Positions 8,697 through 13,449 of a DNA stretch of 64,000 nucleotides are shown piece by piece. Source of the DNA: an uncultured Alphaproteobacteria bacterium (GTDB lineage: Bacteria > Pseudomonadota > Alphaproteobacteria > Sphingomonadales > Sphingomonadaceae); the NCBI GenBank assembly GCA_963843855.1, contig CAWJMA010000007.1, positions 185,065 through 249,064 on the forward strand, given 5' to 3'. Every line of letters starts with the position of its first letter. The first letter of the stretch is position 1. The notes below the pieces were generated by a model. That model did not search any database, was not told where the DNA came from, and saw only the letters and a list, made by a program, of their open reading frames with translations. The translations under genes were made by a program, and so were the position numbers.

Positions 8697-8806
8697 GTGG
8701 ATTTTCCTTCCTGTCTTACTGAATTTGGCTTTGCCCTAGCGGCGTGACGGGCGGGCTGCAAGGGGCCGCTCGACGTGGCGACCAAGCCGCCTTATGGCCG
8801 CACCCC

Positions 8807-9256
8807 ATGTCCGCATCGCGTGCCCTGACATTCGGCGAGGTCGAAATGGCCCGTTCGCTCTTTGGTCAGGCGGTCGATTACGACCGAGTCCGACTTGTGC
8901 GGCGGAGATGGTGGCCGTTCCAGCCGAAGGGAATCGTGATGGCGCCGACCGGCAATATTCACTTCCATCCGGACAGTCCCAGTTGGTCCGACGATTTTGC
9001 GCGCGAAGATATCGCGGCCCAAGGCCTCTTCATGCATGAAATGACCCATGTGTGGCAGGCCCAGACCCGTGGACGATTTTATTTGCCGCTGATGCGCCAC
9101 CCATTCTGCCGCTACCGTTACGATGTTCGCGATGGATGGGCGTTCGATCGCTATGGCCTTGAACAGCAGGCCGAGATCGTCCGTCACGCCTTTTTGGCTA
9201 GCAAGGGGATGCGGTTGGCCCAGAATCCGCCAGCGGACCTGCTTCCTTTCGGCTGA
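8807..9256 (+). CDS. Conserved hypothetical protein with HExxH zinc-peptidase-like motif
   Basis: RALTFGEVEMARSLFG..DYDRVRL, FMHEMTHVWQ and downstream LEQQAEIV. Confidence 0.7.
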   Translation: MSASRALTFGEVEMARSLFGQAVDYDRVRLVRRRWWPFQPKGIVMAPTGNIHFHPDSPSWSDDFAREDIAAQGLFMHEMTHVWQAQTRGRFYLPLMRHPFCRYRYDVRDGWAFDRYGLEQQAEIVRHAFLASKGMRLAQNPPADLLPFG

Positions 9257-9390: not shown

Positions 9391-12018
9391 ATGAAATTTT
9401 CCGCTCGCTTTGCCAGCCATTTGTTGCTGGGTGCCGCATTCGCCGCCATCTCTTCGCCAACTTTTGCCCAGACCGCTGCGGAAGAAACAGCGCAGGTGGC
9501 CGCAAGCCCGAATCCGGACGTTGCAACGCCGGAAGACGAGGATGCGATCATCGTGACCGCGACCAAGCGGTCGACACGGGTCCAGGACGTTCCCTTCTCG
9601 ATCAATGCGCAGACCCAAGAAGACATCCAGCGTGCCAACGCCAGCACGGTCGAAGATCTTGCGCGCAACGTCGCTGGTCTCACTGTCCAGAATCTCGGGC
9701 CGGGTCAGAGCCAGGTGTCGATCCGAGGCGTTTCCGCCGGTCAGATTGTTCGTGACCAGCCGGGCGTGAAGGAACAGGTCGGCGTCTATCTTGACGAATC
9801 GGTGATCTCGCTTTCCTTGTTCACCCCGGATTTCGATTTTTACGATCTCAATCGCGTCGAAACGTTGCGCGGCCCGCAAGGGACGTTGTTCGGTTCGGGA
9901 AGCGTTGGCGGGACGATCCGCTACATCACCAACCAGCCGCGCCTCGGCGAGACTGAGGGCAGTGCAGAAGCCGGCCTGACATTGGTCAAGGGCGGGACGA
10001 TCGGCGGTTCGCTGAAGGGGATGGTCAACGTCCCGATCGGCGATAACGCGGCGCTCCGCGTGGTCGGTTACTACACCAAGTTTGGTGGCTTCATCGATGC
10101 GGCCGGGCCGGGTGGCGGCGACAATGTCAACGACGGTCGACGTATCGGCGTTCGCGCCTCATTGCTGTGGGAGCCGATCGAGGGCCTGAAGCTGACTCCG
10201 CGGGTCATCTGGCAGCGCGTGACCGCCGGTGGCTTCAACCGCGAGGAAATCTTCAACCTGGCCGCCAACGAAGACACCGGAACCGCGTTCCAGTTCGGCG
10301 ATCGCGAGCAATATTTGCGCCTTCCCGAGCAGTTTCGCGACAACACGTTCCTCGCCGACCTGTCGGCATCCTATGATTTCGGTTCGGTCGAACTGACCAG
10401 CGTCACCAGTTACATCAACCGCGACATCCTGGTCAGCCGAGATGCCAGTGCGCTAACTTCCTCGGTTTCGATCGCGCCATTTGTCACTGTGTTCGGCGCG
10501 GATCCGGACATCATATTCCTCAACTCGAACCTTCGGGACACGACCGACCTCAAGACCTGGACACAGGAACTGCGCCTGGGTTCGTCGGCACCGGGGCCGT
10601 TTCAGTGGGTCGCGGGCGGCTTCTACTCAAAGGTCAAACGCATCTATGCCCAGCGTCTACCGACGCCCGGTTACGACGCGTTCATTGACGATCCGGCGGT
10701 GTTCGGTCCGGGTACATCGCTTGCAGTCTCGAATGGCTTCCCGCTCAATTCGCCCTACAATGCGGATATCCCCTATGATATTCGCCAATTCGCACTGTTC
10801 GGCGAAGGAAGTTATGATTTCGGTCAGTTCAAGCTGACTGCCGGCGGCCGCTATTATTGGTTCAAGGAGACTCGCGACTTCGTTTCAGGCGGTATTTTCT
10901 CGAATAGCGATACGCGGCTTGACGACAAGACGAAGTCCAACGGCTTCAGCCCGCGCGCCATCGTCACGTGGGAGCCGACCCGGAATTTCAGCGTCAACCT
11001 GCAAGCGGCCAAGGGCTTCCGCCTCGGCGGCGTCAATGATCCGCTCAACCTTCCACTGTGCGACAACGGAGTGCCGGACGGGCCGGACGCCCGGACCTTT
11101 GGCGGCTTCCCCGGCTATGACGATGAAACGCTGTGGAATTACGAAGCCGGGATGAAATATTCGGCGGGCGGCTTCACCTTCAATGCAGCGGCTTTCTATA
11201 ATGATATCAGTAATTTGCAGGTTACAGCCGACGCCGGTTCTTGCTCTTCACGTGTCGTGTTCAACGTTCCGAAGGCCCATACGATGGGCGTCGAAGCGGA
11301 AGTCAGCGTTCGCCCGCTCGAAGGGCTCGAGCTATCGGTCGCTGGCTCGCTGATCGAAGCAGAATTCGACAGCACCCTGCGCAGCGCGGACGATCCGCTG
11401 ATCATTGGCGATCAGAGCTTCGTGATTGCCGGCATCCGCAAGGGCAACCGCCTGCCGACGGTTCCCAAGTTCCAGATTGCTGCAACCGCCACGTATGGCG
11501 CGCGTCTCAGCGACAATGCGGAATGGTATGTGTCGGGAAGCTTCCAACATGTCGGAAGCCGGTACACGCAGCCTTCGGATCAGGAACCGGGTGCAGGGAA
11601 TTTCACGGCGATCAATTTCTTCGGGCCGGCGCAAAACTTCTCGCTCGACCTGAAATTGCCGTCGTACAATCTCGTCAACCTGTCGGCCGGACTTGAGTTC
11701 GACAGCGGTTGGGACGTCGTGGTTTACGCCAACAACATCTTCGACGAATCGCCGAGGCTGTCGTTTGACCGTGAACGCGGCGGACGTGCTCGCCTAGCCT
11801 ACAATATCGGTAGCCCAAGGGTACTGGGACTGACGCTGCGCAAAGCCTTCCGCGCTGCGCCGCCACCACCGCCGCCAGCACCACCGGCACCGCCGCCGCC
11901 GCCCGCTCCGCCGCCCGCGTCGCAGACCTGCAGCGACGGTTCGGTGATCCTGGCGACCGAGGCATGCCCGTTGCCGCCTCCCCCGCCGCCGCCGGCGCCG
12001 GAACCGGAGCGCGGATAA
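9391..12018 (+). CDS. TonB-dependent receptor with Pro-rich C-terminal extension
   Basis: Signal peptide, IIVTATKR TonB-box region, plug motif RVETLRGPQGTLFGSGSVGGTIRYIT, barrel ending PRVLGLTLRKAF, then a 55-aa Pro-rich tail. Confidence 0.93.
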   Translation: MKFSARFASHLLLGAAFAAISSPTFAQTAAEETAQVAASPNPDVATPEDEDAIIVTATKRSTRVQDVPFSINAQTQEDIQRANASTVEDLARNVAGLTVQNLGPGQSQVSIRGVSAGQIVRDQPGVKEQVGVYLDESVISLSLFTPDFDFYDLNRVETLRGPQGTLFGSGSVGGTIRYITNQPRLGETEGSAEAGLTLVKGGTIGGSLKGMVNVPIGDNAALRVVGYYTKFGGFIDAAGPGGGDNVNDGRRIGVRASLLWEPIEGLKLTPRVIWQRVTAGGFNREEIFNLAANEDTGTAFQFGDREQYLRLPEQFRDNTFLADLSASYDFGSVELTSVTSYINRDILVSRDASALTSSVSIAPFVTVFGADPDIIFLNSNLRDTTDLKTWTQELRLGSSAPGPFQWVAGGFYSKVKRIYAQRLPTPGYDAFIDDPAVFGPGTSLAVSNGFPLNSPYNADIPYDIRQFALFGEGSYDFGQFKLTAGGRYYWFKETRDFVSGGIFSNSDTRLDDKTKSNGFSPRAIVTWEPTRNFSVNLQAAKGFRLGGVNDPLNLPLCDNGVPDGPDARTFGGFPGYDDETLWNYEAGMKYSAGGFTFNAAAFYNDISNLQVTADAGSCSSRVVFNVPKAHTMGVEAEVSVRPLEGLELSVAGSLIEAEFDSTLRSADDPLIIGDQSFVIAGIRKGNRLPTVPKFQIAATATYGARLSDNAEWYVSGSFQHVGSRYTQPSDQEPGAGNFTAINFFGPAQNFSLDLKLPSYNLVNLSAGLEFDSGWDVVVYANNIFDESPRLSFDRERGGRARLAYNIGSPRVLGLTLRKAFRAAPPPPPPAPPAPPPPPAPPPASQTCSDGSVILATEACPLPPPPPPPAPEPERG

Positions 12019-12063: not shown

Positions 12064-12103
12064 ATGCCGCCCGGTCACATCGTTGACCGGGCGGCATTTC
12101 TTT
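12064..12103 (+). terminator. Rho-independent terminator between the convergent TBDR and dsbA-like genes
   Basis: ATGCCGCCCGGTCA-catcgt-TGACCGGGCGGCAT 14-bp perfect stem followed by TTCTTT. Confidence 0.85.
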
Positions 12104-12128: not shown

Positions 12129-12836
12129 CTATTTCGCGATTGCAGCTTTCAGCGCCGGCTCGACCGCTTCCCAGGTGCCGCCCGACAATCTGGTGCCGTT
12201 GAGGAAGAAGGTCGGCGTTCCGGTCACGCCTTTGGCCCGTCCCGCTTCCGCAAAAGCGATCAGCCGGTCAGTCGCGGCGCGATCGGCGAGGCATTGATTG
12301 GCGCGCGCCAAGGTCAGGCCGCGACTGCCCGCAATCTTCTGCAATCCGGTGAGGTTCGCCAAGGCCGGAACCAGTTTCTCCGGCGGCGCACCCTGCAGGG
12401 CAGCCAGCTTTTCCTTGGGAATTTTTGTCGCCGCGCCCAACCATTGATCCTGTGTCGCAAACATCGTGTCGGCCAACGGGAAGAAGCCTTTCGCGCCGTT
12501 ACACCGCGCCAACAGCGTCGCCGCAACATCGTAACCATTGAGCAAATAGCTTCGGAATTCGTAGCGGACCTTGCCGGTCTTCACATAGTTCGCAACCAGC
12601 GGCTTGAGCCCGGTTTCGGCGAAATGCTTGCAATGCGAACAGGTCAGCGAGCCATATTCGACAAGCGTCAGCCTGGCCTTGGGGTTGCCCATGACGATAC
12701 CGCCCTCGGGCGTTTCGGCGACGACCTTTGACCAGTCGGTCGTGACACTTGCCTTTGCGTTCGCTTGTGCCGCGATTGCCGGCCCACTGACGCTGCCAAG
12801 AAATGCGGCGGACAAGGCCAGCGCAAACATTTTCAT
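12129..12836 (-). CDS. DsbA/thioredoxin-fold periplasmic protein
   Basis: Signal peptide, LVEYGSLTCSHC (CxxC), GTPTFFLNG cis-Pro motif. Confidence 0.88.
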   Translation of the reverse strand: MKMFALALSAAFLGSVSGPAIAAQANAKASVTTDWSKVVAETPEGGIVMGNPKARLTLVEYGSLTCSHCKHFAETGLKPLVANYVKTGKVRYEFRSYLLNGYDVAATLLARCNGAKGFFPLADTMFATQDQWLGAATKIPKEKLAALQGAPPEKLVPALANLTGLQKIAGSRGLTLARANQCLADRAATDRLIAFAEAGRAKGVTGTPTFFLNGTRLSGGTWEAVEPALKAAIAK

Positions 12837-12897
12837 GATCAAACCCCTCGTAAATCGCGTCGCTGGGTAAATTGCGGATGATGAACCGCAGATTGCC

Positions 12898-13449
12898 TCA
12901 GTCCGGGCGCCGCGCCACACCGACCAGTGCCGGACGAAGCAGCCGGTCCTTCATCTGGTAACCGGCCTGCATCTCTTCGACGACGGTTCCCGGTTCCTGA
13001 TCGCTGGGAATCTCGATCATCGCCTGATGCTTGTGCGGGTCGAGCGGCAAGCCTTTCGCCGCAACCCTTTCGACACCGTTGCGGGCGAACACCTGGTCCA
13101 GTTCGCGCGAGGTTGCCTCGATCCCGGCAAGGAAGTTGGCAGCGGTCTGGTCGGCGCGCAATTCCTCGCTAACCGCGGCTAACGCGCGATCGAGATGATC
13201 CTTGATCGCCAACATATCGCGCGCGAAGCCGGCGGCCGCATACGACCGCGCGTCGGCGGATTCCTTGTCCATCCGGCGCCGCGCATTCTGCAATTCGGCG
13301 GCAGCGTAGAGCGCCTTCTTATTGGCCTCTTCCAGCTGCGCCTCAAGCTCGGCGACGCGGTCATGCTCGGCCAGTTCGGGAGCATCCGCAGCGGTCTCGT
13401 TACGGATCTCTTCGGCTTCGTCGTGAAACTTCTCGTTATCGTCGTTCAT
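12898..13449 (-). CDS. grpE: Nucleotide exchange factor GrpE
   Basis: AELQNARRR, LDPHKHQAM, GYQMKDRLLRPALVGV; ATGA overlap with the hrcA stop. Confidence 0.95.
   Translation of the reverse strand: MNDDNEKFHDEAEEIRNETAADAPELAEHDRVAELEAQLEEANKKALYAAAELQNARRRMDKESADARSYAAAGFARDMLAIKDHLDRALAAVSEELRADQTAANFLAGIEATSRELDQVFARNGVERVAAKGLPLDPHKHQAMIEIPSDQEPGTVVEEMQAGYQMKDRLLRPALVGVARRPD

Follow-up and report, generated by a model that had tools for sequence, protein, structure and literature searches.

We analysed a stretch of 64,000 nucleotides, referred to below as the window, from the genome of an uncultured alphaproteobacterium of the family Sphingomonadaceae (assembly GCA_963843855.1, contig CAWJMA010000007.1, positions 185,065 to 249,064 of the forward strand). 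This genome, which comprises 2.14 Mb in 7 contigs and is 99.9% complete, will be called the source genome. The subject of the study is a gene in the window that encodes a TonB-dependent receptor (TBDR), and in particular the proline-rich tail by which this receptor extends beyond its outer-membrane barrel and which closes with the tripeptide Glu-Arg-Gly (ERG). Our preferred reading, developed below, is that such tails may fasten outer-membrane barrels to the cell wall.

A receptor gene that continues past its barrel

The receptor gene (9391..12018, + strand) was identified from the list of open reading frames (ORFs), their translations and Pfam, and encodes 875 amino acids, including the tail. 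The protein starts with a predicted signal peptide (residues 1-26; 9391..9468), whose boundary between ...SSPTFA and QT was placed by reading the sequence, without a predictor. It is followed by a TonB-box-like DAIIVTA (residues 51-57; 9541..9561), which was assigned from the usual TonB-box consensus just before the plug, and by a Plug domain (PF07715, residues 64-175; 9580..9915; E = 1.7e-17, above the curated cut-off). The 22-strand barrel (10276..11850), of which residues 296-783 match PF00593 (TonB_dep_Rec_b-barrel) with E = 3.8e-43, runs to the last strand VLGLTLRKAF and hence to F820, with its beta-signal internal.

The frame extends 55 residues beyond F820, as RAAPPPPPPAPPAPPPPPAPPPA-SQTCSDGSVILATEACP-LPPPPPPPAPEP-ERG followed by TAA, all on the + strand. 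The first of these parts is an N-side spacer (residues 821-843; 11851..11919) that is probably a polyproline-II rod. The second, which we call the bead (residues 844-860; 11920..11970), contains Cys847 and Cys859 in a C-x11-C arrangement, presumably joined by a disulfide. The third is a C-side polyproline rod (residues 861-872; 11971..12006), and the terminal Glu-Arg-Gly (residues 873-875) and the TAA stop (12016-12018) together occupy 12007..12018. A terminator-like hairpin of 14 pairs (10 GC) with a loop of 6 lies at 12064..12097, between the receptor gene and a convergent dsbA-like gene; it is matched on both strands, with a T-run (TTCTTT) on the + strand. The initial annotation had described a frame running past LGLTLRKAF into a Pro-rich, two-Cys tail that ends in PERG and is followed by a terminator, and each of these elements is present at these positions; the anatomy that it proposed, a periplasmic polyproline spacer with a small C-x11-C loop and a terminal ERG motif, likewise holds.

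Among the 120 best relatives of the receptor barrel, 41 have a bead tail and 79 do not. Nearly all of the latter end in ...KAF, ...KAFGR or ...KFGQ, and since these tail-less orthologues stop at the barrel end, the Phe is the normal end of the barrel and the tail is an add-on. The aromatic beta-signal ...LTLRKAF is thus present in the receptor in an internal position, with 55 residues beyond it, which is no argument against its membership of the TBDRs because OmpA has an internal signal too. Both termini of even-stranded outer-membrane barrels face the periplasm, and on account of this topology the tail is expected to be periplasmic. It contains no lysine. When AlphaFold2 was run without an alignment, the tail obtained a pLDDT (predicted local distance difference test score) of 72-86, with 72-85 for the tail of this receptor, and the bead was modelled as a hairpin with strands (S/T)QT and VIL and a turn at C-x-D-G-S, both for a small barrel of the kind described below and for the tail of this receptor; the barrel was not folded under these conditions.

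Distribution of the tail and the proteins that carry it

A six-frame scan of the source genome for polyP-C-x(8-16)-C-polyP (polyP, polyproline) gave five matches, all of them at ORF C-termini and all reading ...EPERG-stop. A profile built from these five tails added a sixth copy, and all six form the C-termini of outer-membrane barrel ORFs: two TBDRs, three eight-strand barrels of the OMP_b-brl family and one autotransporter beta-domain. The sixth copy lies outside the window (C3:48726-49729, equivalent to L109:327-1330, minus strand) in an OMP_b-brl barrel gene that is divergent to an adjoining Scaffold+YkuD L,D-transpeptidase gene. It has a one-base deletion inside a CCG tract, where CCG CCG GCG is read as CCGCCGCG, and its barrel and its bead-ERG tail are in different frames; this frameshift could be an assembly error or could mark a real pseudogene.

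The tail profile matched all 24 sampled genomes of the same genus (GTDB Sphingomicrobium, a soil genus), in 1-14 places each, and 6 of the 112 sampled genera of the family; no match was obtained in 16 genomes from other families of the order. The genus includes the cultured species Sphingomonas sediminicola, S. daechungensis, S. rhizophila, S. edaphi, S. arenae, S. caseinilyticus and S. humi, and cultured carriers of the tail are S. sediminicola DSM 18106, S. rhizophila KACC 19189 and S. daechungensis JCM 17887. In the 80 loci that were fetched, the module was always C-terminal.

An exhaustive search of 1.84 billion representative proteins with a hidden Markov model (HMM) of the tail yielded 311 matches, so that the motif is not unique to the receptor gene. 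Fifty-five representatives have a full-length C-terminal match, of which 31 match OMP_b-brl and 7 Autotransporter (E <= 1e-5). Inspection by eye of the long full-length C-terminal matches showed that 25 out of 25 are the ends of TBDRs, autotransporters or other barrels, and every complete full-length C-terminal match that we inspected is on an outer-membrane barrel. A seemingly different host, a penicillin-binding protein (PBP) with a Pfam Transgly match (P0178, 270 amino acids), proved to be a class A PBP N-terminus with the glycosyltransferase motif fused to the middle of a tail-type barrel, and was rejected as most likely derived from a chimeric metagenome contig. The outer-membrane barrels whose periplasmic C-terminus bears the tail therefore fall into at least three unrelated classes, and the similar tails on other sphingomonad outer-membrane proteins that the initial annotation could only recall have now been demonstrated by genome and protein profile searches.

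Conservation of the tail at the level of the peptide

The six paralogous tails of the source genome show synonymous changes at 1-7 of their 17 bead codons, the swaps being Ser AGC/TCG, Gly GGC/GGA/GGG/GGT, Asp GAT/GAC and Cys TGT/TGC; amino-acid changes among these beads are confined to four variable positions. We considered recent gene conversion as the cause of the near-identity of the tails, and ruled it out: as the paralogues differ at synonymous sites, it does not explain the identity of the peptides. The purifying selection that this pattern reveals at the amino-acid level suggests that the tail is translated.

Length and end statistics were obtained from 280 non-redundant tails. The C-x11-C loop has the same length in all 280. 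The distance from the last aromatic residue to the first cysteine has a median of 25 residues, and that from the second cysteine to the C-terminus a median of 17 residues, with the 10th and 90th percentiles at 16 and 19; this narrow range of the C-side rod deserves attention because the rod is encoded by a slippage-prone repeat. The end is RG in 279 of the 280 tails, this RG is preceded by Glu in 94% of the tails, and that Glu is in turn preceded by Pro or Gly in 94%. Nothing follows the Gly in 84% of the RG-ending tails (234/279); where residues do follow, there is mostly one, and six tails have a doubled ERGERG. The codons for E, R and G, as well as the stop codon, vary between copies.

The ERG tip and the cysteine bead

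The initial annotation described the spacer, the cysteine loop and the ERG end together and suggested that they could be an undescribed module. Comparison of the sequences separates the two: by their distribution the ERG-COOH tip is the constant and specific part of the tail, and the C-x11-C bead is a generic linker module that is not specific to it.

With regard to the tip, a DNA pattern of at least four Pro codons, up to 15 bases and ERG-stop found matches in 29 of the 112 genera of the family. In about 15 of these the match is in frame, and the in-frame matches include other small barrels and a small soluble protein. A stricter polyPro-ERG-stop pattern found essentially no match in 298 other Alphaproteobacteria. 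Furthermore, two paralogous exported Cys proteins encoded outside the window (C3:282273-282662, + strand; C7:12299-12697, - strand) end in GERG. They consist of about 125 amino acids with a signal peptide and 3-4 cysteines, are unrelated to the barrels and match no Pfam model. Of the 120 best homologues of these proteins, 119 end in xERG, sometimes with one residue more, and the residue before ERG varies between Q, G, P, S and E. Terminal RG alone was tried as a genome-wide end signal and dismissed, because its occurrence in 20 of 1421 coding-like ORFs amounts to no enrichment. A neighbouring gene whose product ends in EPRG was also rejected as a carrier of the tip, because it encodes DnaB, a cytoplasmic helicase, and its end is thus a coincidence.

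The tail alone had no match at E <= 1 in Pfam-A or NCBIfam, including the sorting-domain models of NCBIfam. Unlike C-terminal sorting signals (LPXTG/sortase, PEP-CTERM/exosortase, GlyGly-CTERM), it has no hydrophobic helix and basic tail after the motif. Of the roles put forward in the initial annotation, envelope tethering, sorting or glycosylation, sorting therefore lacks its defining feature, since nothing follows the motif.

As for the bead, the top-scoring HMM matches contain 3-11 beads arranged in tandem. They belong to unrelated secreted proteins, to lipoproteins and to a subtilase autotransporter. These proteins (P0122-P0134, P0138 and P0262) come from many metagenomes, and their bead reads T-x-T-C-x-D/N-G-S/T-V-I-x5-C-P, with a repeat of 13 residues that no Pfam or NCBIfam model covers. 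The bead appears to be a widespread linker module that has no name. It is also dispensable, because three orthologues of this receptor, which belong to the 79 relatives that have no bead tail, carry knot-less, Cys-less tails of the form polyP-acidic-polyP-GERG. Where it is present, the bead would be locked by a disulfide formed by the periplasmic Dsb system.

The gene that is convergent to the receptor gene and shares the hairpin with it (12129-12920 of the window, - strand) encodes a DsbA-like protein of the thioredoxin fold (Pfam Thioredoxin_4 and DSBA; CSHC motif). Such a protein would fit disulfide formation in the bead. It should be noted that this adjacency may mean nothing, because the gene is part of a conserved synteny, fabF-acpP-ORF-TBDR-dsbA-like-grpE-hrcA, that was found around receptor orthologues in at least 11 loci.

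The tail stands in the place of an OmpA_C domain

The small tail-type barrels proved informative because their relatives in the family have a known architecture. When the small barrel served as query against 60 other genera of the family, 57 had a homologue; this was almost always the sole copy, and in most cases its open frame comprised 370-440 amino acids. Nineteen of 20 homologues that were fetched from other Sphingomonadaceae genera have the order barrel-polyP(20-30)-OmpA_C, one of them stopping early inside the domain, and the twentieth is truncated by a contig end. The small tail-type barrels are homologues of this barrel-polyPro-OmpA_C protein, with 40-56% identity in the barrel. Instead of it, the source genome has three tail-type paralogues of about 280-300 amino acids. 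No barrel+OmpA_C protein was found in the source genome, where the OmpA_C domain is confined to a Pal-type lipoprotein, a further lipoprotein and a small ORF, and OmpA_C (PF00691) had no match on this receptor or on the tail-type barrels.

In close relatives of the small barrels the order is barrel-polyP-ATQTCPDGSVILATEVCPAP, followed directly by the OmpA_C domain, and the bead in these OmpA hinges, ATQTCxDGSVILATxxCP, is identical to that of the tail; one of the 20 fetched homologues has the bead before a second rod. Rod and bead are thus the hinge of the OmpA-type protein of the family. Since the protein is barrel-polyP-OmpA_C elsewhere and of the tail type here, the second rod with its ERG end is found where the peptidoglycan-binding domain would otherwise be.

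In the small tail-type barrels (C6:306018-306878 and the relatives P0004-P0116), the mature protein is predicted to start with R-D, L-D, M-D or Q-S-D. The Asp at position 2 recalls the Ala-Asp N-terminal motif of Brucella, with only about 5 residues before the first strand here.

L,D-transpeptidase genes beside the small barrels

The source genome has seven YkuD genes, that is, genes for L,D-transpeptidases (LDTs), and two of them adjoin two of its three small tail-type barrel genes; none of the other LDT genes is next to a gene for a barrel or for an ERG-ended product. An HMM built from the seven genes was used to find YkuD neighbours elsewhere. In 14 of 34 tail-type OMP_b-brl loci, the tail gene had a YkuD ORF at a distance of 116-680 bp, compared with none within 5 kb of 20 OmpA_C-type genes (Fisher p = 8e-4, a value that is optimistic because the loci are phylogenetically related). 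The pairing of barrel and YkuD recurs in a second genome of the same genus and in another genus, and it spans three gene arrangements and four LDT lineages, namely two Scaffold+YkuD types, a 356-aa (amino acid) type and a 182-aa type. With several arrangements and lineages involved, the pairing is not one inherited block. Unbiased clustering of all neighbours yielded no recurrent envelope enzyme other than LDTs.

The source genome also has three genes of the Wzy_C family (O-antigen ligase or PglL-like), all outside the window (C7:16543-16965, C3:290082-290516 and C7:25896-26294), two of which are within about 1.5 kb of LDT genes. Sphingomonads have no lipopolysaccharide (LPS) and use glycosphingolipids; these genes could encode protein O-glycosyltransferases or exopolysaccharide enzymes.

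Discussion

The replacement of OmpA_C and the LDT neighbours both favour the tethering role that was among the proposals of the initial annotation. Judged from sequence, we consider the chances to be slightly better than even that the tail is a portable periplasmic module of Sphingomonadaceae that tethers the outer membrane to peptidoglycan and that has been multiplied in Sphingomicrobium. The two rods would act as stiff polyproline-II spacers. With about 0.31 nm for each residue, a length of about 8 nm is obtained for the first rod, similar in magnitude to the distance between outer membrane and wall that is quoted for E. coli (PMC12729407). The bead would lie at the level of the OmpA_C domain in the OmpA-type protein. 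From there the ERG tip would engage the cell wall or a wall-bound partner, and an LDT would probably have a part in forming or handling the attachment. Receptors, small barrels and autotransporters would in this way be fixed to peptidoglycan at a defined spacing, and no OmpA_C domain would be needed to hold the outer membrane to the wall.

The closest known systems are the OmpA-family tethers, which comprise OmpA of E. coli, OprF of P. aeruginosa and the barrel-polyPro-OmpA_C protein of the Sphingomonadaceae. Like the proteins studied here they combine a barrel with a periplasmic proline-rich hinge, and the hinge of OprF contains Cys. They end, however, in the OmpA_C domain (PF00691), whereas in the tail the place of this domain is taken by a further proline rod, about 17 residues long, with ERG at its end, and the tail module, unlike those tethers, has been transplanted onto TBDRs and autotransporters. 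Proline-rich rods are also known from TonB, whose long periplasmic (X-Pro)n or polyPro rod is thought to be a rigid polyproline-II spacer; the TonB rod joins an inner-membrane anchor to a folded C-terminal domain, whereas the tail is suspended from the outer membrane with a tripeptide at its end.

Covalent tethers offer a second set of comparisons. Lpg1810, a FadL-family barrel of Legionella pneumophila, is tethered to peptidoglycan via a short Pro-containing C-terminal tail, in which a lysine (KTPAPPEKDIT) is linked to meso-diaminopimelic acid (mDAP) by standard LDT chemistry (PMC11841132). The likeness is that of a transport-type outer-membrane barrel with a Pro-containing periplasmic C-terminal tail, which in our case too would link the barrel to peptidoglycan; the ERG tail differs in having no lysine, in being five times longer and in its conserved terminal tripeptide. 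Braun's lipoprotein Lpp and OutB are attached through a C-terminal ...RK or ...KK by LDTs of the ErfK/YbiS/YcfS type (PMC12729407). They share with the proposed tether a conserved C-terminal motif borne by a rigid spacer whose defined length determines the distance between outer membrane and wall, and LDT genes that are involved or adjacent; Lpp, however, is a lipoprotein coiled coil ending in Lys, whereas the tail combines a barrel anchor, a polyproline spacer and an Arg-Gly end. Barrels of Brucella, Agrobacterium and Coxiella, as cited in PMC12729407 (Godessart 2021, Sandoz 2021), are tethered covalently to the wall through their N-termini by LDTs, in bacteria that have no Lpp. According to these citations, outer-membrane barrels, including alphaproteobacterial Omp25-like OMP_b-brl proteins, serve as wall tethers there as we propose here, with the difference that the link is made by a free N-terminal amine (Ala-Asp or Gly-Gly), whereas the conserved extension here is C-terminal. 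In general, the LDT-anchored proteins (Lpp, OutB, Lpg1810 and the Brucella outer-membrane proteins) need a Lys or an N-terminal amine as acceptor, which the ERG tail does not offer, although YkuD genes are present and genetically associated here too, at the small-barrel loci. Literature searches for sphingomonad proline-rich outer-membrane tails, the OprF hinge, the tail or the bead gave no relevant match, and what is probably new here is a barrel tether of the OmpA or Lpg1810 kind with an undescribed terminal anchor.

Several points weigh against tethering. The protein-wall links published so far all use Lys or an N-terminal amine, and in the known LDT attachment it is the protein amine that attacks the acyl intermediate of peptidoglycan and enzyme (PMC12729407); as the tail has neither a Lys nor a free N-terminus, this chemistry cannot apply as such. 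None of the known attachments described in PMC12729407 and PMC11841132 involves an Arg-Gly end. About 16% of the tails carry residues after ERG, which fits poorly with a strict requirement for a terminal carboxylate, and a fully extended tail, at about 14 nm, would exceed the usual distance between outer membrane and peptidoglycan. Moreover, LDT genes accompany the small barrels only, with none beside the TBDR or autotransporter tail loci, including this receptor, and the statistical support for their association is subject to the relatedness of the loci mentioned above. The tail is also accessory, because many orthologous receptors (79/120) do without it, and its contact with the wall is something that we infer from sequence and gene context.

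If the link is covalent, one conceivable but improbable solution is that Glu-Arg-Gly is a ribosomally made mimic of the end of the peptidoglycan stem (D-isoglutamate, meso-DAP, D-Ala), which an LDT uses as acyl donor. Arg would then play the part of the long, charged, L-configured residue, and the achiral Gly would stand in for D-Ala. Cleavage by the LDT between Arg and Gly would leave the Arg carbonyl bound to the enzyme as a thioester, from which it would be transferred to the free amino group of a meso-DAP in the wall. LDT-type enzymes can place Gly at stem position 4. Were the mimicry real, it would represent a protein-peptidoglycan bond of a new class, in which the protein is the donor and not the acceptor, and a portable three-residue tag for anchoring barrels and soluble periplasmic proteins of Sphingomonadaceae to the wall.

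Other explanations of the tail need to be weighed against a tether. It is possible, at a likelihood that we rate as low as that of the stem mimic, that the ERG tip is read not by the wall but by a periplasmic protein, such as a PDZ protease or C-terminal processing peptidase, a chaperone, or an OmpA_C or Pal-type protein, in which case the tail would serve quality control, regulated turnover or docking and the proline rods would be just a presenting arm. PDZ domains read C-terminal tripeptides, and the tip belongs to this class of signal; it is found both on barrels and on soluble exported proteins, residues after the G are tolerated in about 16% of tails, and the source genome keeps Pal and an OmpA_C lipoprotein as possible partners. 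However, clustering of the neighbours revealed no co-localised gene for a reader, with LDTs as the only recurrent envelope-enzyme neighbours, and a tag of this sort leaves unexplained why the tip stands in the place of OmpA_C at a fixed rod length. Even less likely, in our opinion, is an inert spacer or brush, in which the rods, possibly O-glycosylated on the Thr and Ser of the bead, set the width of the periplasm or fill space, and ERG is a cap against carboxypeptidases. Proline rods are classical spacers, as in TonB and in the hinges of OmpA and OprF. The bead has conserved T-Q-T and S residues in a Pro-rich context, and the three Wzy_C genes, in a bacterium expected to have no LPS, could encode PglL-type protein O-glycosyltransferases. 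Nevertheless, an inert cap would not stay E-R-G in two unrelated families across many genera, the adjacency of LDT genes would be left unexplained, and the hairpin accounts for the conservation of Thr and Ser equally well.

The length of the tail raises the question whether it could span the periplasm and contact an inner-membrane machine such as TonB-ExbBD or Tol, and so couple barrels to the energised inner membrane. When extended, it would measure about 14 nm (0.31 nm per residue), which is greater than the usual distance from outer membrane to wall, and the host in the window is a TBDR; but most often the host is a small eight-strand barrel or an autotransporter, neither of which is energy-coupled, the receptor retains a normal N-terminal TonB box, and the tip substitutes for a peptidoglycan-binding domain, so that we regard such coupling as very unlikely. 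Finally, CCG tracts are prone to slippage and one of the six copies in the source genome is frameshifted inside such a tract, which might suggest that the tail is a low-complexity extension without function, or an artefact of annotation or assembly such as a CCG-repeat expansion past a lost stop. This possibility is close to negligible: the peptide is kept while synonymous sites vary, the length of the rod is under constraint, the tail is present in hundreds of independent assemblies, and the stop codons differ although the terminal RG before them is invariant. The view of the initial annotation that the tail does not result from a lost stop is thereby borne out, given also that the tail recurs in paralogues and in other genomes.

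If the tail is indeed a tether, it bears on the question of how the outer membrane is fastened to the wall without Braun's lipoprotein, which is an active question in Gram-negative bacteria. The known answers are binding by OmpA_C or Pal-type domains and links made by LDTs to Lys or to an N-terminus. The sphingomonad outer membrane is an unusual case, as it has no LPS. An ERG tip that acts as an anchoring signal would be a new and very small wall-targeting tag, and if the link is covalent it would involve new chemistry too. As cultured species carry the tail, the proposed tethering is directly testable.

A further gene beside the receptor

The interval between acpP and the receptor gene holds an ORF of 170 amino acids (8744-9256 of the window, + strand). 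It had no Pfam match; it contains an HExxH motif (FMHEMTHVW), is conserved, and is syntenic in several loci of the genus.

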